Positions 11,874 through 55,535 of a DNA stretch of 64,000 bases are shown piece by piece. The position numbers were made by a program, and so were the translations under genes. How positions within the stretch are numbered: position 1 is the stretch's first letter; the number at the start of each line of letters is the position of its first letter. A model generated the notes under the pieces. It saw only the letters and a program-made list of their open reading frames with translations. It had not been told where the DNA came from and made no database searches. The stretch is from Rickettsiales bacterium (GTDB lineage Bacteria > Pseudomonadota > Alphaproteobacteria > Rickettsiales > JABSSG01): positions 4,904 through 68,903 of the forward strand of contig JAGVLN010000008.1 of assembly GCA_020049805.1 (NCBI GenBank), given 5' to 3'.

Positions 11874-12680
11874 ATGTTGCAGATTTTTATTATAGTTTTT
11901 CGAGAAATATTAGAAATTTCGGTTATTATAGGTTTAGTGCTTGCTGCGACTAAGGGATTAAAAAATCGCAATAAGTGGGTAATTTGCGGCATATTATTTG
12001 GTTTATTAGGTTCAATATTAATCGCTTTATTTACTTCTAACATTTCAAACGCTATTGAAGGCCAGGGGCAAGAGGTCTTTAATGCCATAATAATTTCTAT
12101 AATTACTATTTTACTTATTTGGACAGTAGTATGGATGAAATCTCATGGGCAAAATATAACTAAAAAAATTAAACATGTTAGCCAGAAAATTCACGAAGGC
12201 GAATCATCGTTTATACCATTAATGTTCGTTATTGCTTCAACAATTTTTCGAGAAGGAGCAGAAATTGTATTATTTGCTTATGGCTCATATGCGGCACATA
12301 ATTTAAGTTTAGTTAATATAATGATAGGAGCTGGGGGAGGTTTAGTTGTTGGTAGTATAGTAGGTATAACAATTTATCAAGGACTAATTTGTTTTACGGG
12401 GAAATATATCTTCCAGGTAACAGCATTATTGTTGAGCTTTATCGCAGCGGGAATGGCTTCTCAAGCAATTAATTTTCTACATGCTAGTGGATTGCTTAAT
12501 ATATTTTCATATACTTTGTGGAATAGTTCTAACCTTATTGCTGATTCTAGTATTCTTGGGCAGTTCTTAAATATATTGCTGGGTTATGATTCACAACCAA
12601 CGGTTATGCAAGTCATAGTATATTGTAGTACTTTATTAGTAATATATTTATTGATTAAATTACAATCTAAATCTAGTTAA
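11874..12680 (+). CDS. FTR1/EfeU-family high-affinity iron permease
   Basis: 268 aa polytopic protein with two REXXE motifs (REILE near the N-terminus, REGAE mid-protein), the hallmark of the FTR1 family. Confidence 0.8.
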   Translation: MLQIFIIVFREILEISVIIGLVLAATKGLKNRNKWVICGILFGLLGSILIALFTSNISNAIEGQGQEVFNAIIISIITILLIWTVVWMKSHGQNITKKIKHVSQKIHEGESSFIPLMFVIASTIFREGAEIVLFAYGSYAAHNLSLVNIMIGAGGGLVVGSIVGITIYQGLICFTGKYIFQVTALLLSFIAAGMASQAINFLHASGLLNIFSYTLWNSSNLIADSSILGQFLNILLGYDSQPTVMQVIVYCSTLLVIYLLIKLQSKSS

Positions 12681-13830
12681 TAGATTTTTTTCCCTTTTTA
12701 TTGTCTACAGATTTGTTTATATTTTGCTCCAGTAATTCAAAACATTCCTTACCAATAGGGCTGCCATTATCTGCGCTAATTTTATACCATTTTAGCGCTT
12801 CGGCAGTATTTACCTCAACTCCTCTACCTTGCTCATACATTGAACCAATACTTGCTTGAGCTGATTCATCACCTTTTTCGGCAGCTAAATTATACCATTT
12901 AAATGCTTCCTTATAATCTGGGGCTATATCATCATAACCACTATCATACATAGAACCTAAATTATACATAGCCTTAGCATTACCAGCTTCAGCAGCAAGT
13001 TTGTAGAATTTAAAAGCCTCTGATAAATTTTTATCTATTCCTAATCCTGCCTCGTAAAACAAGCCAAGGTTATTTTGGGCATCAGTATTTCCTTGTGCGG
13101 CCGATAATTTAAACCAACTTAATGCTTGTTTGAGGTCGCGTTCAACCCCTATACCTGATGCATATTTTTCTCCAAGAGTAAACTGTGCCTTATCGTTACC
13201 ATTTTCTGCTGCAAATTTATAACATTCGATGGCATATATAAGATTGGGAGAAATACCAATTCCATTTTCGAGCATTAAACCTAAATTATAGCCAGCTTCT
13301 GTATTGCCTTGAGCAGCGCTGGTGTAAAAGCAATTATATGCTTCAGTACTATTTGCTTCAACACCTCTACCATTTAGGTACATATAACCCAATCTTACTA
13401 AAGATTTTAACTCCCCTTTTGCAGCGGCCGATTTATATAAATTAAAAGCTTCTTTTAAATTTTGTGGTGCTATTATTCCTAGCTCATAAATATATCCAAG
13501 GTTATATTCTGCTGCGGCATTGCCACCTTGAACACTCTTTTTAAGCCAGTCTAGGCCTTCTTCAATATTTTGAGGTATCTTGTTACCTGTAACTAAATAG
13601 CTACCAAAGGTGCATTGTGCTAGTGAATTGCCCTTTTCAGCTGCATATTTATAAAGCTTTAAAGCCTCAATATCATTTTGTTTTACCCCAACACCGTGCT
13701 CATACATTAATGCTAAAATACATGATATATTTAGGTTGCCATTTTGCGACTCTTGTAGGATATAAGGTAATGCATTTACTAGATCACCTTTCTCATAATT
13801 TTGTTTAGCTTGATTATAAGATATTTCCAT
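12673..13830 (-). CDS. Sel1-like repeat (SLR/TPR-like) protein
   Basis: 385 aa made almost entirely of about 36-aa Sel1 repeats (A..WY.KAA.QGN..AQ..LG.MY..G.GV..N...A). No N-terminal signal peptide is visible. Confidence 0.9.
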   Translation of the reverse strand: MEISYNQAKQNYEKGDLVNALPYILQESQNGNLNISCILALMYEHGVGVKQNDIEALKLYKYAAEKGNSLAQCTFGSYLVTGNKIPQNIEEGLDWLKKSVQGGNAAAEYNLGYIYELGIIAPQNLKEAFNLYKSAAAKGELKSLVRLGYMYLNGRGVEANSTEAYNCFYTSAAQGNTEAGYNLGLMLENGIGISPNLIYAIECYKFAAENGNDKAQFTLGEKYASGIGVERDLKQALSWFKLSAAQGNTDAQNNLGLFYEAGLGIDKNLSEAFKFYKLAAEAGNAKAMYNLGSMYDSGYDDIAPDYKEAFKWYNLAAEKGDESAQASIGSMYEQGRGVEVNTAEALKWYKISADNGSPIGKECFELLEQNINKSVDNKKGKKSIN

Positions 13831-18548: not shown

Positions 18549-19355
18549 ATGAAAAAAATTTCTTCGTTTTTCGAAATAATATATTTGTCATTTTTTTCGG
18601 CAGAATTTTATCGGGATGTTTATAATAATTTACAAGGTAAAAAATTGAATTATTTACTCCGCTTAGTAGCTTTTGTTGCCCTAGTTATGGCGATAATTGA
18701 AAGTGCAAATATTTGGATTAATTTTAATCAATTCGATTCTACTAAAACTATTGATAATATACTTAATCAAGTACCTACAATGGTAATAAAAAATAAGGAG
18801 CTACAAATATTAAATAAAAATGTTGAAGGCCCAATTTTTGTACGTAATAGCGAAGGAAAAATATTAGTTATTATTGATGATCAAGCAAAAGACAATAAGT
18901 ATCAATCAGAGAATGCACCATTAGTTGTTATTAAAACAGGAATGTTTTTATCAGATCGAGATCAAATTAGATTTAGCTCTATGATGGATAAAGATGAGTT
19001 AATAGTTACGCATGAGGTCATTATTCAATATTGGCAAAAAACTTTAGAAATCTTTAAATTAATCCTACCTTTTATATTGTTTGTCATAACATTTTTAGAA
19101 CTAAGTATTGGCACAATATTTTATGCATTAATTTTTGCCGGAATAGTTTTATTAACACATAAAATTATGCAATATAAAAATATTTCTTTTGAGCCATTAT
19201 TTCGTTTAGCTATATTTGCAAGTTTTCCTTCTATAATAGCTATGATTCCTTTGTTTTTTATGCCTGCGTTAAGCCCAAGTTGGATTTATTTGGCCTACTT
19301 ATTTTTTGCTTACTATAATGCTCTATATGCTAATAAGAAAGGTTTAGAGGGATAA
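18549..19355 (+). CDS. DUF1189/YvdJ-like integral membrane protein
   Basis: 268 aa. The N-terminus (F..I..S.FS.EFY..V.....GK...YLL.L) and topology resemble DUF1189 as I recall it. Function unknown. Confidence 0.45.
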   Translation: MKKISSFFEIIYLSFFSAEFYRDVYNNLQGKKLNYLLRLVAFVALVMAIIESANIWINFNQFDSTKTIDNILNQVPTMVIKNKELQILNKNVEGPIFVRNSEGKILVIIDDQAKDNKYQSENAPLVVIKTGMFLSDRDQIRFSSMMDKDELIVTHEVIIQYWQKTLEIFKLILPFILFVITFLELSIGTIFYALIFAGIVLLTHKIMQYKNISFEPLFRLAIFASFPSIIAMIPLFFMPALSPSWIYLAYLFFAYYNALYANKKGLEG

Positions 19356-20828
19356 TTGTTTTAAATATTCTTTATTAAGTAATTTTACATCAATAATCCA
19401 AATGATGGTTACAATTATAAATATTACCATTAATAAGGTAGAAATTGTTAAGTAGGTGGCTGCAGGAAAAATTATAAATAGCATTGATTGTAAAAACGCA
19501 GCTCCCGATTTAGCAAATCTTGCCCCAACCACATCTACTGCTGCCTTACCTTTAGATTTTAATTGATCATCTAGAGGTATGTAAGTCATTTCTTTAGTGG
19601 GATCAAATAATGCATATTTAGTTGATTTACCTAATACATTTTGAGCCATGCCTAAAAATACGGCTAATATTAAAGGATCAAAAATAAAGAAAGTTCCTAA
19701 GTACAAATTTACAATTTCATCAAACACTACAAATATAAAAAATGCGGTACCAGTTATAAAAAAAGTTAAAGGAGTAATAATTGCGGCTGTAAACCAACTA
19801 TATCTTTTTAATATAGTTGCTCCAATTAAAATGAATATCATGGATATACCACCAGTCCATTGATTAACTCCAGCCATAAAATATACATAGTCATCAGTAG
19901 AAGGGAAAAATTCTCTTACAGTAGCTTTCCATGGTCCTTCTAACAAATTCATAGTAATGCCATAACATAATACTAAAACTGCTATATATCCTAAATAGCG
20001 TGATGACATTATCACCTTAAAGCTTTCCAATAACGGCATTTTTTCTTCAGGGTGTTTTGTTTGAATTTGTTTTAAGTATTTCTCATCAGTGATCACATGG
20101 TGATTTACATGTTCGAATAGAGCTATAATTGCTAAAGTAGAGAATATAAGGACTGTCATCATTATTTGGACTAAAAAAACAGTATCTTCGTTAAATTGTG
20201 CTTGCAAAATTGTGGAAAACTTAATAGCGCTGCCAGCAATGAAAGTTCCAAAGCTGCCTATAAATGCAAACATAGGATAAAATCTTTTTGCTTCTTTAGT
20301 TTTAGTTACTTGGTTAGCAAATTGCCAAAACAGTAAGCCATTCATTACTGTCCATAATTCAGCTACCATATAGAAAATCGCATATAGCCATTTATTGTAG
20401 ACTAGGAAAAACCATTTAAAATGCGATAAGCTAATTTTACAGAAATTGAGATCTATATCTTGATCTAGTAATTGTTCAATCTGTTGGAGATTAGGATGAA
20501 TAAGGATTTCATTCGGATATAGTACAAAGCCAAATAATAAAAAGAAACAAATGAAGAATAAAGAAATATAAAAATAAATTTTTCTAAAATTCCAAATATC
20601 AGTCATTTTAGCGTAAATTATTACGAAAATAATAGCAGCTGGTACTACACAGAAGAATTTAATAAAACTAATGGCTTCAGCGCCAATATTTGGTACAACT
20701 AAGCTATCCTTGAAAGATCGTAAAGCATTATAATTGAATAAAGTGAAAAACAACATCAGAGACATGGGCAGGAATTTTTTTAGCTCTTCTTTCTTAATCG
20801 GCCAAATAAATTCTTTAATTTTACTCAT
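19344..20828 (-). CDS. tlc: ATP/ADP translocase (NTT/Tlc family nucleotide transporter), copy 2
   Basis: 494 aa with about 12 TM segments. N-terminus IWPIKKEELKKFLPMSLMLFF.LFNYNALRSFKDSLVV..IGAEAISF.K, and KGKAAVDVVGARFAKSG near the C-terminus, both characteristic of Rickettsia/Chlamydia Tlc/Npt. Confidence 0.9.
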   Translation of the reverse strand: MSKIKEFIWPIKKEELKKFLPMSLMLFFTLFNYNALRSFKDSLVVPNIGAEAISFIKFFCVVPAAIIFVIIYAKMTDIWNFRKIYFYISLFFICFFLLFGFVLYPNEILIHPNLQQIEQLLDQDIDLNFCKISLSHFKWFFLVYNKWLYAIFYMVAELWTVMNGLLFWQFANQVTKTKEAKRFYPMFAFIGSFGTFIAGSAIKFSTILQAQFNEDTVFLVQIMMTVLIFSTLAIIALFEHVNHHVITDEKYLKQIQTKHPEEKMPLLESFKVIMSSRYLGYIAVLVLCYGITMNLLEGPWKATVREFFPSTDDYVYFMAGVNQWTGGISMIFILIGATILKRYSWFTAAIITPLTFFITGTAFFIFVVFDEIVNLYLGTFFIFDPLILAVFLGMAQNVLGKSTKYALFDPTKEMTYIPLDDQLKSKGKAAVDVVGARFAKSGAAFLQSMLFIIFPAATYLTISTLLMVIFIIVTIIWIIDVKLLNKEYLKQLSL

Positions 20829-20968: not shown

Positions 20969-22483
20969 TCAATATTTGTTTTCATTCTTTTTAGCTTGAA
21001 GCAAGGAATTATAGGCGCGGTTTAATATTCTTAAATCTAATAACCATAGTATTAATACTATAATAAATATAATCATTAAATATGGTGCTATTGTAGTAAA
21101 AGTTGCGGTAGGGAAGAGCATAAATAATAGAGTTTGGACAAAAGCTCCACCAGATTTTGCTAACCTTGCTCCTACAACATCAACTGCGGCTTTACCTTTT
21201 GATTTTATTTCATCATCTGCAGGGATATAAGTCATTTCCTTGGTAGAGTCAAATAATGAATATTTAGTAGCTTTACTTAAAACGTTTTGAGCTGTGCCTA
21301 GCATCACTGCTATCCATAAAGGATCAAATATCATTATGGTAAGTTGGGTAGTGATATTGTCATCAAATACTATAAAACTAAAGAAACCTACGCCAGTAAC
21401 TAAAATCATGATAGGTGTCATCATTGCAGCAACATACCATCCATACGCTCTGAGTATGTTAGCACCTAAAATCATAAATATCATTGCGCATGCTCCGCTT
21501 AATTGGATTACATTACCCATGAAATGTGCATAATCTTTGGTGTTGGGATATAATTCGCCTATTTTGGCTTTCCATGGTCCTTCAACTAGATTGATCGAAA
21601 TACCATAACAAAAGATCAAGATTACTATATAGCCCAAATACTTTGAAGAAAAGATGACCTTGAATCCTTCCAATAAAGGTAATTTAGAGCGTATCCCTTC
21701 GGATTTGTTTGCTTTCCCTGCATAGCGTACTTTAGTCAAAACATTTGTATTAATGTATTTGAATAGTCCCATGGTGCAGATTAATGCAATAGAAGTAAAT
21801 ATCATGAATATAGTTATTAGTCCTTGATCTCCTTCCCCAAAAAATTCAGTATGACCATGGGAATAATATTTCACTAATGCACCTGATACCACTGGCCCAA
21901 TATGACCAATTAACCCAAACATAGGATAAAATCTTTTTGCTTCCTCAGTGCTCGTAGTTTGATTAGCAAACTGCCAGAACATTAAAAATATCATTGCTGA
22001 GCCCCAAAGTTCAGCGATGATATAAAATAGGGCAAAGGGCCATTTTCCAAAAATTAATAAAAACCATTTAAAGTGATCCATGCTAATCGTAAAAAAACCA
22101 AAATCAATAGAAGAGTTGATAAGAGCCTGGATTTTGGCACTACTAGGATTAATTAGCTCTTGGTTAGGGTATAAAATAAAGGCAAAAATCAAGAAAAACG
22201 CTAAGAAAAATATTGAAATGTAATAGAAGATTTTTTGAAAAGGTAAGATGCTAGTTAGTTTCGCATAAATAATTGTAAATAAAATAGCTGAAGGTACTAC
22301 AAAATATAATTTCACAAAACTTATAGCTTCAGCACCAATATTTGGAACTATTAGGCTATCTTTAAATGATCTTAGGGCATTATAATTAAATAATACGAAG
22401 AAAAGCATTAATGCCATAGGAAGGAATTTTCCTAATTCCTTTTTTTTAATCGGCCATAAAATTTCTCTTAGTTTCACTATCAC
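20969..22483 (-). CDS. tlc: ATP/ADP translocase (NTT/Tlc family nucleotide transporter), copy 1
   Basis: 504 aa, clearly paralogous to 19344..20828 and carrying the same signature blocks. It has an apparent GTG start 1 nt after the pntB stop. The first in-frame ATG would delete the conserved N-terminal block. Confidence 0.9.
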   Translation of the reverse strand: MIVKLREILWPIKKKELGKFLPMALMLFFVLFNYNALRSFKDSLIVPNIGAEAISFVKLYFVVPSAILFTIIYAKLTSILPFQKIFYYISIFFLAFFLIFAFILYPNQELINPSSAKIQALINSSIDFGFFTISMDHFKWFLLIFGKWPFALFYIIAELWGSAMIFLMFWQFANQTTSTEEAKRFYPMFGLIGHIGPVVSGALVKYYSHGHTEFFGEGDQGLITIFMIFTSIALICTMGLFKYINTNVLTKVRYAGKANKSEGIRSKLPLLEGFKVIFSSKYLGYIVILIFCYGISINLVEGPWKAKIGELYPNTKDYAHFMGNVIQLSGACAMIFMILGANILRAYGWYVAAMMTPIMILVTGVGFFSFIVFDDNITTQLTIMIFDPLWIAVMLGTAQNVLSKATKYSLFDSTKEMTYIPADDEIKSKGKAAVDVVGARLAKSGGAFVQTLLFMLFPTATFTTIAPYLMIIFIIVLILWLLDLRILNRAYNSLLQAKKNENKY

Positions 22484-25611: not shown

Positions 25612-25688
<77 letters not shown>

Positions 25689-42235: not shown

Positions 42236-43144
42236 TTAAATTTTTATCCAATTTTCAATAGCTGCATCGAATAACGCTGAATTCTCAAAATGGGGCCAAT
42301 GGCTAGTATTTCCACAATCTATGATTGTGAAATTGGAAGGTTTAGGGTGGGCTTTCCATAATTCTAATGGCACACAATCATAATCTAATTTTCCGCCAAA
42401 AAGAATTACAGGAATGCTTATTTTATCTATATTTATAACTAGGTCATGGTTAGGTAAAAGCGTATCAAATAAATGAGCGCAGATTTTATCGTCAACCTCT
42501 ATATCTTTCCATAATTCTTCTAAAAACTGTCTGGATATATTAAAATCAGCCCAATATCTTGCAGAATTTGCTTCATAAGCATTTAATGAAACTTCTGATT
42601 CAATTGGTTTTTTAATTTTAAGGAAATTCTCTTTACGAATTTTATCATTATTTTTACGTTCTAAGGACGCGTGTTTTTCAAAATAATCATTTGCGTATTG
42701 AATTACATGGTTATTCCAGGCAGGAGGTGATCCTACCATAATAACTCCTTTTATTGCTGGATGTGATCTCTTAGCCGCTTCTAATGCAATAATCCCAAAA
42801 ACTGAATGAGCTAATAATATTAAATTTTTTAATCTTAATAACTCTATAACCCTGAATATATCATCAATAATTTTGTTTATTGTTAAATTATGTGGATTTT
42901 CAAGGCTATGGGTTTCAATCCAATATAAATCGCAAGAATATAGAGTAACCAATTCTTTGAATTTATCAGATAGAGTTCTTTGCATTAATGTACCAATTCC
43001 TATACAAAGGCAAGCTATTTCTTCACTGCCTTGAATAGTTATAGGGTATTCTTTATTATCTAGAGTTATATTAATTTTTTTTACTAGAGGCTCTTTAGAA
43101 TTAGTGTTAGGTTGCATAATAATACTTTGGTTAAAATTCGCCAT
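42236..43144 (-). CDS. alpha/beta-fold hydrolase
   Basis: 302 aa. Nucleophile elbow LLAHSVFG (G/A-H-S-x-G-like) and C-terminal ...GNTSHWPHFE supplying the catalytic His. Substrate unknown. Confidence 0.65.
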   Translation of the reverse strand: MANFNQSIIMQPNTNSKEPLVKKINITLDNKEYPITIQGSEEIACLCIGIGTLMQRTLSDKFKELVTLYSCDLYWIETHSLENPHNLTINKIIDDIFRVIELLRLKNLILLAHSVFGIIALEAAKRSHPAIKGVIMVGSPPAWNNHVIQYANDYFEKHASLERKNNDKIRKENFLKIKKPIESEVSLNAYEANSARYWADFNISRQFLEELWKDIEVDDKICAHLFDTLLPNHDLVINIDKISIPVILFGGKLDYDCVPLELWKAHPKPSNFTIIDCGNTSHWPHFENSALFDAAIENWIKI

Positions 43145-49582: not shown

Positions 49583-49591
49583 AATTTTTTA

Positions 49592-50740
49592 TTATCTTCC
49601 TAGCTTCTCTGCTTCTGATAATCTTCCTCGTCTTCTTGCATGTTGATCAGGTGCTTTTTTTGCAGCAGCTGCTGCAGCAGTTGCTAAAGACATTAAGGCA
49701 GTTGTGCCTCTAAGTACTCGGCCTCCTCCCCCAGGTTTTATATATCCTACCATCGGCTCGCCTCCAGCTCCAACCATAGGTACATGCTCTGCTCCACTTG
49801 GAGACTTAAATGATCCATTAGCTGTAGGTTGTAAACGACCTGGTGTTTTAGGAGGAATTCTTGGTAATGCACCAGCCGCTGTACGCATTGGGCTTAATTC
49901 TGCTTCTTCGCTTTCCCATGCAGAGTCTCTCATATTTCTTGCCACATCAGCAAACCCAACGCCTGCTCCTGATCTTCTTCTAGCTCCAATTCTACTTGCT
50001 ATTGAGCCTCCGGTTCCAGGTGTTGTACCGCTACCACCTCTTGCTGGCCTATCATCGCCATGACTACCATGACCTGAATGGACGCTGTCAGTAATTGATC
50101 TGGTAGGAGTACGTTCTCGTCCTCGACGATGTGTTTGTCCTAATTGCGCTTGTAATTGTGCTAATTGTGCTTGTAATTGTGCTACTTGGGGATTTGGTTG
50201 TTGCGGAAATCCATCATTCCTTCCAAAAATATTATGAGCAAAGTTAGTTATAGCATTACTGAACATATACACTGCTCCTACTAAAGCGGAAGTAATAATT
50301 CCAGGTAAACGGTTTGTAATGTATGGCATGTTGCTTTGGAGCATTTCAGTTGTAGCATTTTCCTCATAGTTTGTATGTAGCTCTTCTATTTCTTGTTGTT
50401 GCCCTGGGCTAATTGTACGAGCTGCTGAAGATATTATTAATAAACTTGTTGCTGTGACAGTAGAAGAAAGTAAAGTGCTATATATACTGCCGTTTCTTGA
50501 GGTCATGCTATGCCCATAAACAGCCAAAGAAGTAGCGGCGATCCATGGTAAAGCATCTATAATCATTAAACTTTGTGTAGTTGATAAACCAAGCGATGGA
50601 CCGTAGCTGAGAAGTGAAGCAGGATTAGAAAACGCTGCCCAACCTGCTGCTGCTGTTGTTCCTAAAAAAGCTGCTTGAGCTAGTACTTTAGTTATTGTCC
50701 CTATAGATAAATTTATAGGTAAATTTTGAATTCTTAGCAT
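49592..50740 (-). CDS. unknown polytopic membrane protein, paralog A: conserved N-terminal module, Gln-rich coiled coil and a long GC-rich Gly/Arg/Pro/Ala disordered tail
   Basis: 382 aa. Four hydrophobic segments lie in aa 1-165. AQLQAQLAQLQAQL is at aa 187-200. The tail, aa ~205-382, has RGRER, ARRRSG, GGGG and AAAAAAKK, and ends ARRRGRLSEAEKLGR. The N-terminal module is paralogous to 50784..51521. I recognise no family. Confidence 0.7.
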   Translation of the reverse strand: MLRIQNLPINLSIGTITKVLAQAAFLGTTAAAGWAAFSNPASLLSYGPSLGLSTTQSLMIIDALPWIAATSLAVYGHSMTSRNGSIYSTLLSSTVTATSLLIISSAARTISPGQQQEIEELHTNYEENATTEMLQSNMPYITNRLPGIITSALVGAVYMFSNAITNFAHNIFGRNDGFPQQPNPQVAQLQAQLAQLQAQLGQTHRRGRERTPTRSITDSVHSGHGSHGDDRPARGGSGTTPGTGGSIASRIGARRRSGAGVGFADVARNMRDSAWESEEAELSPMRTAAGALPRIPPKTPGRLQPTANGSFKSPSGAEHVPMVGAGGEPMVGYIKPGGGGRVLRGTTALMSLATAAAAAAKKAPDQHARRRGRLSEAEKLGR

Positions 50741-50750
50741 CTTTAAACCT
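50264..50750 (-). repeat. duplicated module, copy A (N-terminal ~160 codons plus the RBS of paralog A)
   Basis: Aligns with 51057..51531 at an offset of about 793 nt at the 3' ends and 781 nt at the 5' ends (a 4-codon indel). It includes a 54-nt perfectly identical run (50373..50426 = 51166..51219) and an identical aggtttaaagATG start context. Confidence 0.85.
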
Positions 50751-50783
50751 CAATTTTATTTAAATTCATTGTACTTACATTAA

Positions 50784-51521
50784 TTACCTGGAAGCGCCAG
50801 TTGCTATAGACGATCTTCTTCTTCCTGCAACTCTACCGGCTACTGTTCCTTCTGAGAGATTACTATTAGCAGGGGTCGGAGGTGATAGATCAGTAAGTCG
50901 TTGTTGTAATTCATTTGTGGTTGATTCTAGCGCTCTTACTCGTTCTAATGCTGCATTTCGTTCTTCCAGTAATCGAGTCGTGTCTCGTTCTAATTGTAAT
51001 CGTCTCTGATCTCTTCCTAAGAATCTATTAGCTAAGTTAATCAAACCATTACCGACCATATACACTGCTCCTAATAAAGCAGAAGTAATCATTCCAGGTA
51101 AATGGTTTGTAATATTTGGCATGTTGCTTTGGAGCATTTCAGCTGTAGCATTTTCCTGATAGTTGGTATGTAGCTCTTCTATTTCTTGTTGTTGCCCTGG
51201 GCTAATTGTACGAGCTGCTAAAAATAAAGTTGATATGCCGGCTGTTGCGATAAGAGAAGAAAGTAAAGTGCTAAACATGCTTCCATTTCTTGTAGTATTA
51301 CTATGGATATAAACTCCTAAAGAAGTAGCGGCGATCCAAGGTAAGGCATCTATAACAATTAAACTTTTTGTAAGTGATAAACCAAGGGATGTTGAGTAGC
51401 CTAAAATTGAAGCTGGGTTAAAATAAGCTGCTGCACCTATAGCTGCTATCGTTCCTATAATAGCTGCTTGGGTTAGTATTTTAGTACTTTTACCTACTGG
51501 TGAATTTTGGATAGTTAACAT
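50784..51521 (-). CDS. unknown polytopic membrane protein, paralog B: the same N-terminal module with an unrelated coiled-coil/Arg-rich tail
   Basis: 245 aa. It shares AARTISPGQQQEIEELHTNY exactly, and most of aa 1-155, with paralog A. The tail is RRLQLERDTTRLLEERNAALERVRALESTTNELQQRL...GRRRSSIATGASR. Confidence 0.7.
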   Translation of the reverse strand: MLTIQNSPVGKSTKILTQAAIIGTIAAIGAAAYFNPASILGYSTSLGLSLTKSLIVIDALPWIAATSLGVYIHSNTTRNGSMFSTLLSSLIATAGISTLFLAARTISPGQQQEIEELHTNYQENATAEMLQSNMPNITNHLPGMITSALLGAVYMVGNGLINLANRFLGRDQRRLQLERDTTRLLEERNAALERVRALESTTNELQQRLTDLSPPTPANSNLSEGTVAGRVAGRRRSSIATGASR

Positions 51522-51531
51522 CTTTAAACCT
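51057..51531 (-). repeat. duplicated module, copy B
   Basis: See copy A (50264..50750). Confidence 0.85.
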
Positions 51532-51666
51532 TATGTTTGTTGCATATGGATTAATTACCTAAAAATTAATTAATGTCAATAATAATATATAGAAATTAAT
51601 AAAATATATATAAATTAATAAAAGTTTGTAGAAATTAAATTAAACACTCAAATAATTAAAAATATG

Positions 51667-51694
51667 TTGACAAGTTTTAATAAGATCATAGTAT
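51667..51694 (+). promoter_or_regulatory. candidate sigma-70 promoter for the 51754 gene
   Basis: Consensus TTGACA (51667..51672), a 16-nt spacer, then TAGTAT (51689..51694). The -10 hexamer ends about 60 nt upstream of the ATG. Confidence 0.35.
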
Positions 51695-51753
51695 CTATGC
51701 ACAAACTAATAAAATTTTCAATTAGTAGTTATTTAACTTAATAAGGTTTTTCT

Positions 51754-53262
51754 ATGATAAACAAACAATTCTCTAGGTGTTTAACAATTGCATTATTAAC
51801 TTCTGCGCTTACTACTTCCATTACCTCTATGGCAGCAGAAAAATTTACTCCAAATACTAAAGAGCAAGGTAAAGCTGCTGATGCGCTGGCACTTAATTTT
51901 GGCGTTGCACAGGAGGAAAAAGGCTATCGCGATATGGTAAAGGCTGAGGAAAGTATTGTAAAAAATGAAATTGCTGCAACTCAAACTAGAGGTATATCAA
52001 CTTTAGAGAGGTTTAGCACATCACAGGTTAGAGTAGTTGAGAAACATTTTGGTCAGGAACTGGCGGCTATCAGAGAACAAATTCAAGGTCCTCTAAATAA
52101 TGGAGTAAAAGGTTCACTTATTAGTGAAGCTAGAGCTGCTGCTGACACAGCTGCTGCTGCAAATGTTGTAAAAGGAGAGCAAGAGTCAGCTGCTGATGTT
52201 GAAGTTGTGTCATCTCCTTTGCCAAGTACTCCTACTTCTATTCCTGAAGTAAACCCAACAAGCGGTGCTCAATCTTCAGCATCACCTGAAATATCTCCAA
52301 CTATACAAGCAGTATTAGTTGCTAGATCAGCAGAAGATTTACCTTCAACACCATCGCCTACCCCATCATCAAATGGTGGAAAACCAACAAGCGGTGCTCA
52401 ATCTTCAGCATCACCTGAAGCGTCGCCAAGCGTTCAGCCTACTTTTGGTGCAGATGGAGATACCAAGCCCACTTTTACACCAGATCAGCCGGGATTTACA
52501 AAATTAACTGATTATTTAGAAGGCAATGCTGAATTTGACTATAGCATATTTGCTGCAGTAAGCAAGAAAACATATTCTAATCTTAACGCACGGGTGCAGG
52601 ATTTAAGTGTCAAAGCAAATTCAACTCCATCTGATACATTGGATTTATCGGCGCACGAAAGAGCAGTTGATGGACTTGTGAGCCAAGCTGATAGCGATGT
52701 AGATAGCGCAGTATCAACAGCAGTGGAAGATGCGGCTGCCCAGCTTTTACAAAAAAATGTTAGTGATGCATTTATTCGAGTGCAAAAAGCATTTGAAGAA
52801 GCAGTTCGTAAAGCTGAGCAAGAAGAAAGTGATAAGCTAGATGAACTTGTACGTCAAAAAGAAAAAATGGAACAAGCAGCAGGTGAAGCTGCTAAAAACT
52901 TTGAAGCATTTAGAGAAAAAGTTAAAGCAGCAAAAGCTAAAATTAGATCAGAGAGAAAGAAAGGTAAAGAATATTCATCTGCTGAGCAAGGGAAGAAATC
53001 TAGTGAAAAGGTAAAAACTGTATACACTGAAGAGAAATCAAAACTTGATGCTGAAGAAAAAGCTTTACTTGAATTAATTCAAAGAAGCTCAAAGGCGACA
53101 CCAGTTTCTGTATTGCGCGCTGCTTCTTCTAAGTTCGCTACTTTCAGTATGCCACAAGGGTCTAGATTATCAGCTGTTGGTGCGAGAGCTACAGAAAGAT
53201 TTACACCTAGTAAAACTACAAGTGGTTTATTCGGTTTGGCTAATAAAGGCGTGAATAGTTAA
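51754..53262 (+). CDS. secreted/surface protein of unknown family with Ser/Pro/Thr-rich tandem repeats and a Lys/Glu-rich coiled coil
   Basis: 502 aa. Sec-type signal peptide (CLTIALLTSALTTSITSMA/AEK) and a helical N-domain. A degenerate 43-aa repeat has the core PTSGAQSSASPE. The K/E-rich helical region is aa ~340-440. No TPS-domain NPNL/NPNG motifs seen. Confidence 0.75.
   Translation: MINKQFSRCLTIALLTSALTTSITSMAAEKFTPNTKEQGKAADALALNFGVAQEEKGYRDMVKAEESIVKNEIAATQTRGISTLERFSTSQVRVVEKHFGQELAAIREQIQGPLNNGVKGSLISEARAAADTAAAANVVKGEQESAADVEVVSSPLPSTPTSIPEVNPTSGAQSSASPEISPTIQAVLVARSAEDLPSTPSPTPSSNGGKPTSGAQSSASPEASPSVQPTFGADGDTKPTFTPDQPGFTKLTDYLEGNAEFDYSIFAAVSKKTYSNLNARVQDLSVKANSTPSDTLDLSAHERAVDGLVSQADSDVDSAVSTAVEDAAAQLLQKNVSDAFIRVQKAFEEAVRKAEQEESDKLDELVRQKEKMEQAAGEAAKNFEAFREKVKAAKAKIRSERKKGKEYSSAEQGKKSSEKVKTVYTEEKSKLDAEEKALLELIQRSSKATPVSVLRAASSKFATFSMPQGSRLSAVGARATERFTPSKTTSGLFGLANKGVNS
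52255..52419 (+). repeat. in-frame tandem repeat (129-nt period) with a perfect 36-nt core
   Basis: ccaacaagcggtgctcaatcttcagcatcacctgaa occurs identically at 52255..52290 and 52384..52419. The flanks are degenerate (LPSTPTSIPEVN- versus LPSTPSPTPSSNGGK-). Confidence 0.9.
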
Positions 53263-53274
53263 AATTTTAATATT

Positions 53275-53312
53275 AAGATAATTATGGCTATACAAATAGT
53301 CATAATTATCTT
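53275..53312 (+). terminator. long AT-rich hairpin 13 nt after the 51754..53262 stop (terminator or processing/attenuation element)
   Basis: aagataattatg (53275..53286) pairs perfectly with cataattatctt (53301..53312). The stem extends by g-t, ctat/atag to about 17 bp with an acaa loop. There is no immediate U-tract (atgttaataaaaaa follows). Confidence 0.4.
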
Positions 53313-53348
53313 ATGTTAATAAAAAATTGTAATTGAGTTTTGGAGACA

Positions 53349-53600
53349 ATGATAAAAAAACAAATCTTTCTTACTATATTAATTATACTAGTGACACAAT
53401 CTCAGTTAGCTTTAGCTCAACAAGATGAAGCTGCTTCAGAGTTAAATCAACTTAAGCCTAACGATCTCATGGTACCAGACATTGGTATACCTGAGGAAGA
53501 AAAGGAATCAGAAGAGGAAGAAAAATTATTGCTTCAAAGTTATGATTTTGAAAGTAATAAATCAGTTAAATTATTCAAATTAAATCAAATCATATTGTAG
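53349..53600 (+). pseudogene. truncated duplicate of the tpsB 5' end (83-aa ORF: signal peptide, acidic linker and the first POTRA strand)
   Basis: MIKKQIFLTILIILVTQSQLALAQQDEAASELNQLKP...SVKLFKLNQIIL* aligns with MIKKTTFLTIVTILIICSQLALAQQNETASELNQFKP...AVKPFKLNEIIV of the next gene. The upstream ttgagtttt box is also duplicated (53333 and 53601). It keeps its own GGAGA SD, so it could be expressed as a small secreted peptide. Confidence 0.55.
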
Positions 53601-53621
53601 TTGAGTTTTAGTAGAGGGACG

Positions 53622-55403
53622 ATGATAAAAAAAACAACCTTTTTAACTATAGTAACTATATTAATAATATGTAGCCAATTAGCCTTGGCACAACAAAATG
53701 AAACTGCTTCGGAATTAAATCAATTTAAGCCTGATCATACAATACCACAAGAGGCGATAAAATCCATAGAATCAAAAGAAACTTCTGTGCCAATTAAAGT
53801 ATTTCCGCCAAGCAAAAAAGAGGAACTGTCTATCCAAAATTATGATATTGAAGGTGAAAAAGCAGTCAAACCATTTAAATTAAATGAAATAATTGTGGAA
53901 AATGGCCATACTTTTACAGATAGTAGATTTGTGCCTTTATATAAAGATATGATTGGGCAGACAGTTAATTTTAATGACCTAAATAAAATCGCTAATAAAA
54001 TATCTGAATTTTATATCGAACAAGGTTTTCTATTAACCCATGCTTATGTTGATTATAAACAAAATTTTAAAGCTGGGGCTGCTAGAATAAAAGTTATTAA
54101 TGGTGGTATTAGGCAAGTGCATGTTTTAGGTGCTGATCAAGATAATAATTTTATTAAAGAATACCAAAAGAAAATCATTAGTTCTAAACCAGTAACTAAA
54201 AAGTTAGTGCAAAGATATGTTAAATTGATCGATCAAATGCCTGGTTACGAAGTTCAATTGGTGAAAATTCTTCCTGTTCCAGATCATATGCGTACAAGCT
54301 TTGAGGAATATGCTGATTTAGTAATAGTTGTAAAAAAGATTGATAAAGAAGTTAAGCTAAAAGTCAGCAATGACATCAATAAACATTATGGTGATTATAA
54401 AGCCAATGCATCCTTCTCTATGTTCTCACCATTTAAAAAAGGTGAGGAAATTAAGGTAGTATATCTTACATCTAATAAAACAAATGCTCTAAAAAATGCT
54501 GGTGTAATTTATACTCAACCTCTTAATACAGAAGGCACAGCACTTAGAACAATACTCTCTTATGCTGAGAGCAATCAAAGCGCGGTGTCATCTAATAATT
54601 TACCATCACAAAAAAATAATACGGATTATTATGTTGATTTAGAATTATCTCATCCGTTTATCCTAACCAATAAATTTAGCCTTAAAGGCGCTATTGGGTT
54701 AAATTATGACCGAGATACTCAATATAATAATGTGGGTCTGTATAGAAGAAACACCAATTTCGAATTAGATGTTTCTACTACTATGCAATATAAGGATGCT
54801 ATAAAAGGTATAAACTATTTAGTACTTGCTTATGGTCGTGGATTACCTAATAGTAGTTATAAAATTTATCAAACAGCTGCTAATGCATATCAAGTTGAAG
54901 GAAATTATAATAAACTTAACCTAGATTATTATAGGTTACAGCCACTTGTACAAAATCTTTATTTTACAGCTTTAGCTACTGGGCAATATTCTAATAAACC
55001 ATTGCCAAGTGGGCAAAAAATCACCTTTGGTGGGCAAAGTTTAGTTAGAGGATATAAATCAGAATTATTAGCTGCTTCTAAAGGTGCTGGTTTAGCACTT
55101 GAGTTAAATTATTTTATTAATTTAAATCAGCCTTATTTTAAACGTGCTGAATTATATGGATTTTATGATCAAGCAAAAATTATGACTATGGATAATGAGA
55201 CAGCTCTTAACCAAACTTCTACTAAATATTTAGCTTCTACAGGTTATGGTGTAAAAACTAATATAGCTGGTAATTTAAAAGCAGGTTTGGAAATTGCCTA
55301 TCCATTGAAATCTTTTAAGACATATCAAAATTATGCCCCTATTAATGTTCATAAGAATAAAGCACAGACTACTGTCTTCTTAGAACACTCAGTTGAATGG
55401 TAG
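53622..55403 (+). CDS. ShlB/FhaC/HecB-type two-partner-secretion transporter (TpsB; Omp85 superfamily)
   Basis: Signal peptide ending ALA/QQ. POTRA-type block FKLNEIIVENGHTFTDSRF..LYKDMIGQTVNFNDLNKIANKISEFYIEQGFLLTHAYV...G.ARIKVINGGI. Conserved loop-6 VRGY (GGQSLVRGYKS). Beta-barrel pattern with a C-terminal aromatic residue (...EHSVEW). I place the start at ATG 53622 (SD agaggg), not the TTG at 53601. Confidence 0.75.
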   Translation: MIKKTTFLTIVTILIICSQLALAQQNETASELNQFKPDHTIPQEAIKSIESKETSVPIKVFPPSKKEELSIQNYDIEGEKAVKPFKLNEIIVENGHTFTDSRFVPLYKDMIGQTVNFNDLNKIANKISEFYIEQGFLLTHAYVDYKQNFKAGAARIKVINGGIRQVHVLGADQDNNFIKEYQKKIISSKPVTKKLVQRYVKLIDQMPGYEVQLVKILPVPDHMRTSFEEYADLVIVVKKIDKEVKLKVSNDINKHYGDYKANASFSMFSPFKKGEEIKVVYLTSNKTNALKNAGVIYTQPLNTEGTALRTILSYAESNQSAVSSNNLPSQKNNTDYYVDLELSHPFILTNKFSLKGAIGLNYDRDTQYNNVGLYRRNTNFELDVSTTMQYKDAIKGINYLVLAYGRGLPNSSYKIYQTAANAYQVEGNYNKLNLDYYRLQPLVQNLYFTALATGQYSNKPLPSGQKITFGGQSLVRGYKSELLAASKGAGLALELNYFINLNQPYFKRAELYGFYDQAKIMTMDNETALNQTSTKYLASTGYGVKTNIAGNLKAGLEIAYPLKSFKTYQNYAPINVHKNKAQTTVFLEHSVEW

Positions 55404-55535
55404 AAGATTGAACTGTGCTGCAACTTATACAGTGGTCAGAATAGTGGTTTATAATTCTTTTGTTTAGTACTTATAATTTTTTTCATCGTGAAGCTGGTGT
55501 ATAATTAAGTTATAACTATAATTAATAGTGAGCTT

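Follow-up and report, generated by a model that had tools for sequence, protein, structure and literature searches.

An unusual TpsB transporter locus between scoB and phaC in a Rickettsia-like bacterium

Transporters of the TpsB type are understood as dedicated exporters of proteins that carry a two-partner secretion (TPS) domain. A different setting is described here for a tpsB gene of an uncultured Rickettsiales bacterium (GCA_020049805.1, contig JAGVLN010000008.1), an organism seen solely at low depth in water and wastewater metagenomes. The gene lies in a block of ~5.8 kb (positions 49592–55403) between scoAB and phaC, within a stretch of 64,000 nt that was analyzed as a whole and is called the window below; no TPS-domain partner gene stands beside it or elsewhere in the window. 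The hallmarks of TpsB proteins are VRGY/F and F/GxDxG motifs and an H1 plug helix with its linker (PMC5422565). Like the described type Vb transporters FhaC, ShlB, CdiB, and TpsB4/LepB, the window's TpsB combines a signal peptide, a POTRA domain, and a ShlB/Omp85 barrel with VRGY, an FxDxG-like motif, and a C-terminal aromatic residue. Apart from the missing partner, it differs in that its identity to canonical partnered TpsBs is only ~26%, in that the candidate cargo encoded upstream (sp502) is small (502 aa) and predicted to be helical/disordered, whereas type Vb cargo is a large β-helix, and in that an extra free-standing copy of the pre-POTRA segment accompanies the gene.

Other described systems invite comparison. 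FhaBC homologs are considered ancestral in Rickettsiales, where they occur in basal families, Deianiraeaceae, Gamibacteraceae, and a few crown lineages and have tentatively been tied to host attachment (PMC10847448). The window resembles these systems in carrying an FhaC-family gene in a Rickettsiales-type genome; set against that survey, which reports presence/absence only, it differs in holding the FhaC-like half alone, with no FhaB seen. The type Vd protein PlpD demonstrates that a ShlB-type barrel and POTRA can work without a TPS domain (PMC5422565), but its passenger is fused to the barrel, whereas the window's TpsB has a standard N-terminus and no fused passenger. Rickettsiales also carry VirB/D4-type (rvh) type IV systems (PMC10847448); effectors of the type IVA class frequently carry a positively charged signal at the C-terminus, and those with transmembrane segments of moderate hydrophobicity escape targeting by the signal recognition particle (PMC12981334). 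Two membrane proteins of the block are like such effectors in their moderate hydrophobicity, long tail, and Arg-rich, positive C-terminus, and unlike them in having no homology to known effectors and four membrane segments, where effectors mostly have one or two. The window's arrangement and its two orphan protein families were not found described in a limited search of the literature; FhaBC in Rickettsiales is already known by presence/absence (PMC10847448), and the unusual context of this tpsB is well supported.

The transporter and its upstream gene

An initial reading of the window from its letters alone (the sequence-only reading) had placed five open reading frames (ORFs) in the block, and these were confirmed at the following positions, together with an 83-aa product of the smallest when it is read from its internal ATG:

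49592–50740, minus strand: mem382, membrane protein of 382 aa, from the ORF list
50784–51521, minus strand: mem245, membrane protein of 245 aa, from the ORF list
51522–51753: divergent intergenic region between mem245 and sp502, AT-rich (~19% GC)
51667–51672 and 51689–51694, plus strand: sigma-70-like promoter for sp502 by sequence match (TTGACA, 16-nt spacer, TAGTAT)
51754–53262, plus strand: sp502, signal-peptide protein of 502 aa, from the ORF list
53340–53600, plus strand: mini-ORF; likely real start ATG 53349 (83 aa), with a GGAG-like ribosome-binding site
53601/53622–55403, plus strand: tpsB; 593 aa from ATG 53622 with a GGAG-like ribosome-binding site, or a 600-aa ORF from the alternative TTG 53601

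By its sequence, the transporter is a member of the TpsB (ShlB/FhaC/HecB) family, and the claim of a full ShlB/FhaC-type Omp85 transporter is borne out by Pfam, with POTRA_2 (PF08479) at residues 92–168 (5.2e-14), ShlB (PF03865) at residues 250–552 (9.9e-16), and Omp85 (PF01103; 1.2e-5). The nearest solved structures are CdiB (6wim, 1.4e-11) and the POTRA domain of Pseudomonas aeruginosa TpsB4 (2mhj, 6.6e-8; clade profile). The protein has a signal peptide cleaved between QLALA and QQ and ends in EHSVEW; the ~65 residues between the cleavage site and POTRA1 are compatible with a plug helix H1 and a ~30-residue linker. Five TpsBs form a clade that aligns over its full length, with the C-terminal EH-VEW conserved; the L6 motif VRGY (residue 475 in the window) is invariant in all five, and the barrel motif, FxDxG in the four relatives, reads FYDQA at residue 514 of the window's protein (Gly to Ala). 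Homologs at 42–55% identity were found in four other contig families alone, below which identity drops to 26%; conservation at this level in four families indicates that TpsB is under constraint and not a relic. The next-nearest TpsBs, at ~26% identity, are each followed directly by a canonical TPS-domain gene, so the studied clade has departed from the canonical arrangement. In its place, all five loci of the clade have a co-oriented ORF without a Pfam domain immediately upstream of tpsB, and one of them, L081, holds such an ORF even though its downstream gene is comEC and not phaC.

In the window the upstream gene is sp502. Its product has a plausible Sec-type signal peptide, predicted to be cleaved between TSMA and AEKF, followed by a helical N-region, a Pro/Ser/Thr-rich low-complexity center, and a Lys/Glu-rich helical C-region; the center contains a 43-aa internal repeat (nt 52251–52300 and 52380–52429; 50 nt, 90% identical, 129 nt apart). 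The AlphaFold2 (AF2) model (predicted local distance difference test, pLDDT, 51) consists of helices and disorder with no β-helix. Pfam and NCBIfam gave no match for sp502, a search of 5.8 billion clustered proteins returned only the window's own gene, and a sequence search of the PDB with sp502 and the N-terminal domain of the membrane proteins gave chance-level matches only. Relatives of the orphan proteins were instead found by synteny, not by search, in L082 (GCA_964562565.1), where the order is scoA, scoB, a 383-aa protein (minus strand), a 599-aa protein (plus strand), tpsB, and phaC; in L083 the order is a 520-aa protein, tpsB, and phaC, with a possible divergent hydrophobic N-terminus at the contig end. 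The 599-aa and 520-aa proteins are homologous to each other (z 12 overall and 26 over the N-terminus, against shuffles), and sp502 is related to them at great divergence (z 6.4 with the 520-aa protein and 4.6 with the N-terminus of the 599-aa protein), qualifying by its sequence as a weak ortholog of both. Signal peptides are present on sp502 and its orthologs, and the mature N-terminus reads PF-x-P-[NS]-[ST] in L082 and L083 and KFTPNT in the window.

Upstream of the sp gene an aligned promoter-like block, AATTAAAA-T-TTGACA....TTAATA, is kept in the window (51650–51682), L082 (~2650–2690), and L083 (~355–395), conserved in the three genomes although the sp proteins themselves are barely alignable. 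The 19%-GC intergenic region between mem245 and sp502 also contains some three tandem copies of a 19-nt unit, AATAAAATATATAGAAATT (51578–51638); these could be a regulator binding array or just AT-rich slippage.

Three internal duplications had been noticed in the block, and all are real: the membrane-protein pair, the sp502 repeat, and the mini-ORF, which was correctly recognized as a truncated copy of the TpsB N-terminus (52% identical, E 3e-23) and matches the clade TpsB profile at 5e-11. The copied unit comprises the ribosome-binding site, the signal peptide, and the N-terminal pre-POTRA segment, and stops exactly where POTRA1 starts; the segment equates, by position only, to helix H1 and the linker of FhaC. 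Between the mini-ORF and the tpsB N-terminus dN/dS is 0.34, a value of low power as dS is ~1 (saturated) over 83 codons, and the mini-ORF is absent from L082 and L083. In FhaC it is the linker that sits in the cargo-binding site (PMC5422565). The mini-protein may be a duplicate in decay, or it may act as a free H1 and linker competing for the POTRA groove.

The account put forward for these genes, tentatively and at a little under even confidence, is that they form a non-canonical type Vb module in which TpsB would export sp502 to the cell surface. The protein would be made from its conserved sigma-70-type promoter and brought into the periplasm by Sec, as its signal peptide suggests; the co-oriented TpsB, as the conserved gene pairing suggests, would then pass it through the Omp85 barrel to the surface or the medium, where it would act as an extended, helical/disordered, fast-evolving surface protein. 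The conserved TpsB hallmarks, the upstream pairing, the L082 orthology, and the conserved sp promoter support this account, with sp502 as the putative non-canonical cargo of the TpsB encoded downstream. The locus has grown in the window's lineage by duplication of the membrane gene, the 5′ end of tpsB, and the sp502 segment.

The paired membrane proteins

Two paralogous polytopic proteins with unrelated tails had been described on the minus strand. Their paralogy stands (50% identical overall, E 1e-69; 66% over the N-terminal domain of 173–177 aa, with an N-domain dN/dS of 0.63), but the tails are related in part, as the motif G-x-[VI]-A-x-R-[VI]-x-x-RRRS is common to both. In mem382 the N-terminal ~175 aa hold four helical segments of weak hydrophobicity, and the ~205 aa that follow make up a tail rich in Gly, Arg, Pro, and Ala, apparently disordered as judged by composition alone. 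Within this tail RRRS stands at residue 254 and a fifth hydrophobic stretch, rich in Ala, near residue 342; the C-terminus is basic and ends in HARRRGRLSEAEKLGR. The mem245 protein has the same four-segment N-domain and a coiled-coil-like stretch, and ends just after GRVAGRRRS; as mem382 has its RRRS in the middle of the tail, mem245 looks like a truncated paralog. Its AF2 model (pLDDT 48) is all-helical. An ORF of 119 aa lies antisense to the GC-rich part of mem382 (49704–50063, plus strand); it is probably not a gene, being open since GC-rich sequence holds few stop codons.

With mem245, a search of 5.8 billion proteins matched the window's own genes and no others. When 1.84 billion representatives were searched exhaustively with a profile of the N-domain shared by the two paralogs, mem382 and mem245 alone were recovered; neither the alignment of the TpsB clade nor that of the membrane proteins matched anything in scans of JGI metagenomes, and local profile searches of 89 fetched loci yielded no further members of the membrane-protein or sp families. 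The statement that the three unknown proteins fit no known family is thus upheld across Pfam, NCBIfam, the PDB, the 5.8 billion clustered proteins, and the 1.84 billion representatives. The 383-aa protein found by position in L082 has four hydrophobic segments, a Gly/Arg-rich tail, RRRS, and a basic C-terminus, and matches the window's membrane proteins by BLASTP at E 2e-8 and over the N-domain at z 11–14 against shuffles (11 for mem382). On this sequence evidence it is likely that mem382 is its ortholog, and the duplication is specific to the window's lineage, L082 having a single copy. RRRS is present in all three homologs and fits R-R-x-S, a basophilic kinase consensus. Between the tails of mem382 and the L082 protein, z is 0.9 over the whole tail (not significant) and 3.0 over the last 110 residues, so the conserved tail motifs are weak evidence.

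The tail also appears to differ between close strains. Run X1 contains a near-identical strain whose tpsB and phaC match the window at 99.5% identity or more, while the mem382 region (49583–50260) is 90–95% identical and is the most divergent part of the block; its last ~285 nt (49583–49867) are unalignable at 80% identity. These contigs, of 3–7x depth, suggest that the mem382 tail is hypervariable between strains, and the concentration of divergence in mem382 fits rapid evolution.

The two proteins would be either inner-membrane proteins with a cytoplasmic tail or transmembrane effectors delivered by an rvh (VirB/D4-type) type IV system. The first of these, that they are ordinary inner-membrane proteins (N-in, C-in, four segments) that are not exported and are functionally unrelated to TpsB, is nearly an even call, falling slightly short of it. 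Four helices are predicted, the charges (basic N-terminus, acidic loop 3, Arg-rich tail) follow the positive-inside rule, the proteins lack a signal peptide, and their neighborhood contains no gene for type IV secretion. Their segments are, however, markedly less hydrophobic than those of the window's housekeeping inner-membrane proteins: the hydrophobic peaks (KD19) lie at 1.27–1.87, against a mean of 2.12 and a median of 2.13 for 59 peaks of the latter. The proteins also evolve very fast, with a tail that varies between near-identical strains, and the Arg-rich C-terminus and RRRS are kept in the L082 ortholog despite ~26% N-domain identity. Type IV delivery draws on biophysical features of this kind and is the weakest of the proposals made here. 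The tails are 59–65% Gly/Ala/Pro/Arg/Ser/Thr, and the net charge of the last 40 residues is +6 in mem382, +4 in mem245, and +6 in the L082 ortholog, a feature that is permissive and not specific. Two points weigh against delivery: the features of the proteins match those of an ordinary N-in/C-in protein equally well under the positive-inside rule, and no rvh/virB gene is present among the window's ORFs.

Cargo of the transporter

The proposed export of sp502 by TpsB has to be weighed against several points. Recognition of cargo by TpsB runs through the TPS domain (PMC5422565), and a domain of this type was sought in three ways: PF05860 gave no match to the block proteins in Pfam, comparison of the three sp proteins with a TPS-domain alignment by hhalign gave a probability of 0.05, and a local TPS hidden Markov model (HMM), built from four TpsA N-termini and matching its positive control TpsA at 1.4e-206, found no match among six-frame ORFs of the window, the related loci L081–L084, and the genomes L001–L003. 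As these local tests turned up no TPS-domain partner, the locus falls outside the canonical two-partner system. In canonical relatives tpsA lies downstream of tpsB, so the sp gene, which lies upstream, is not a positional descendant of tpsA. The gene pairings in the window, L082, and L083 share ancestry and are not independent evidence, and the upstream ORFs of L081 and L084 are partial and have no detectable similarity to sp502. The AF2 models of sp502 and mem245 (pLDDT 51 and 48) are too low in confidence for fold comparison, and two sequencing runs with a guessed RNA label hold fragments of tpsB and phaC only, so that expression is not established. All of these points count against the proposed account.

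In a competing account, TpsB would serve a canonical TpsA encoded elsewhere in the genome, and sp502 would be an unrelated periplasmic or surface protein kept near tpsB by inherited synteny. All TpsBs characterized so far recognize the TPS domain, and some of them export more than a single TpsA or show greater promiscuity than others (PMC5422565); genes resembling FhaB and FhaC are known from some Rickettsiales (PMC10847448); the visible part of the genome amounts to only 64 kb; and the shared ancestry of the three pairings would allow synteny to be inherited. The TPS domain, however, was found neither in the window nor in the related loci, L081 keeps the upstream ORF beside tpsB despite its altered wider context, and the sp promoter is conserved. 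An unlinked TpsA partner is judged rather unlikely.

A more elaborate version of the export account joins three parts, and as a whole it is improbable. A TpsB clade restricted to Rickettsiales may have switched from the β-helical TPS cargo to a small, hypervariable, helical/disordered surface protein, which would be recognized by a short motif in the mature N-terminus of the sp proteins; in the window's lineage the mini-protein would be a periplasmic plug or competitor that gates TpsB in trans; and the membrane proteins would be rvh-delivered effectors whose RRRS motif would be modified in the host. Taken apart from that combination, a host-interface role for the block is plausible.

History and setting of the locus

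The flanking genes had been named scoAB and phaC, and Pfam agrees (CoA_trans at 1.7e-71 for scoA and 3.4e-46 for scoB; PhaC_N at 3.4e-69 for phaC). A scan with PhaC over one genome per species identified L001 and L002 (72%) and L003 (69%), after which identity is at most 50%; the three are lake and other metagenome-assembled genomes labeled Rickettsia. L003 has the same neighborhood as the window, in the order htrA, hflC, hflK, mrp, scoA, scoB, phaC, cca, and pnp, with scoB and phaC 158 bp apart; the proposed comparison of the scoB–phaC interval thus confirms that the block interrupts this pair. L001 has phaC and lacks scoAB. By ScoA and ScoB, L082 and L003 are ~90% identical to each other and each 80–85% identical to the window. 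As L082, which has the block, is nearer to the island-less L003 than to the window, the simplest history is an ancestral locus lost in L003. An ancestral locus that was lost cleanly in L003 and duplicated in the window's lineage is likely, on the thin tree support of two genes, and by its sequence the locus is old, native, and confined to one clade of Rickettsia-like intracellular bacteria. The genes of the block evolve much faster than their neighbors: between the window and L082, identity falls from 85% for ScoB to ~55% for TpsB and ~26% for the membrane N-domain, with the sp protein barely alignable. Pieces of the block recur at 97–100% identity on independent contigs of low depth from metagenomes of wastewater, drinking water, and marine samples, so it is not an assembly artefact.

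The sequence-only reading had called the block an accessory island, and a recent origin by horizontal transfer is now very unlikely. Such an origin would be in keeping with the adjacency of scoB and phaC in L003, with the orphan status of the three unknown proteins, and with a sharp local GC anomaly. The GC peak is real (0.48–0.50 at 49700–50150, against a window mean of 0.32), but it is not a signal of foreign DNA: by codon position the GC content of the mem382 tail is 0.62/0.63/0.18, and that of the orthologous L082 tail 0.73/0.66/0.20. As the peak lies in codon positions 1 and 2 only, it is a product of the Gly/Ala/Arg/Pro-rich protein, and third-position GC (GC3) is 0.18–0.23 in every block gene, as in the housekeeping genes scoA, pnp, and hflK and the translocase, so the codon-position GC marks the block genes as native. 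An orthologous block occupies the same scoB–phaC site in L082, and sp–tpsB–phaC is present in L083; L082 groups with the island-less L003 on ScoA and ScoB. The reported lack of an integrase, transposase, or flanking tRNA was confirmed, with none among the block ORFs and the sole tRNA of the window at 25612, 24 kb from the block, and the sole repeat flanking the block is 22 nt with an 82% match. A horizontally acquired island was rejected accordingly, since mobility genes, a tRNA or repeat boundary, and foreign codon usage were all lacking.

The junctions of the block with its neighbors were also compared. At the scoB side, scoB and mem382 converge with their stop codons 9 bp apart (49583–49591), and their L082 counterparts overlap by 8 bp (1226–1233); there is no terminator-like site between scoB and mem382, and such tight packing fits long co-residence. 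At the phaC side there is one further feature:

55495–55505, plus strand: extended -10-like element TGGTGTATAAT, ~30 nt upstream of the phaC start

The element is kept in an alignment of the window, L003, L083, and L001, that is, in genomes with and without the block, so phaC has kept a promoter of its own, downstream of the block. Counts of promoter-like and terminator-like sites in the block show no clear excess over shuffles, and only the promoter conserved across genomes was taken as evidence.

The possibility that the unknown proteins are associated with polyhydroxybutyrate (PHB) granules (phasin- or PhaM-like), in the same pathway as scoAB and phaC, is scarcely tenable: the site between two PHB/ketone-body genes and the Ala-rich, helical, low-complexity character of the proteins would suit it, as would the basic tail that PhaM-type proteins have, but the gene of sp502, a protein with a signal peptide, is paired with that of an outer-membrane exporter, L003 and L001 have phaC without the unknown genes, phaC keeps its own conserved promoter, and the reading was rejected when no phasin, PhaP, or PHA_gran_rgn match was found in Pfam or NCBIfam at E ≤ 0.1.

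Pfam assignments for the remainder of the window agree with its description as housekeeping DNA: cysS, rodA, bamB, der, pgk, gap, tkt, pntAB, addA-like, ftsH, glmM, uvrB, porin, htrA, hflKC, mrp, cca, pnp, truB, and infB. The ATP/ADP translocases that had suggested an intracellular lifestyle are also present, as two tandem paralogs of the TLC family (Pfam TLC 1e-158 and 6e-169):

19344–20828 and 20969–22483, both minus strand: TLC ATP/ADP translocases, directly beside pntB and pntA

Two tandem translocases of this family indicate an energy-parasitic, intracellular-type organism. Two other loci of the window deserve mention. A 385-aa protein of eight Sel1 repeats (1.7e-73) is encoded at 12673–13830 (minus strand); eukaryote-like repeat proteins of the Sel1 type are often linked to host interaction in intracellular bacteria, and this protein may be equally relevant to host interaction as the block studied here. 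A 302-aa ORF at 42236–43144 (minus strand), between the porin gene and htrA, has no Pfam match at 1e-5 and looks alpha/beta-hydrolase-like by eye; the matching slot in L001 (3260–4036) holds two different small ORFs, and in this region, which is syntenic otherwise, the porin–htrA slot may be a second site of variation.

If export of sp502 is true, a conserved, intact TpsB clade without a TPS partner, in which a fast-evolving signal-peptide protein is always encoded ahead of the transporter, would widen the substrate rules of type Vb secretion. The locus also provides candidate surface and effector proteins for poorly known, metabolically richer lineages related to Rickettsia, which carry PHB genes as well as ATP/ADP translocases. 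With its duplication in one lineage, its loss in one relative, and the apparent strain-level hypervariability of a tail, it offers a natural experiment of host-interface-like character.

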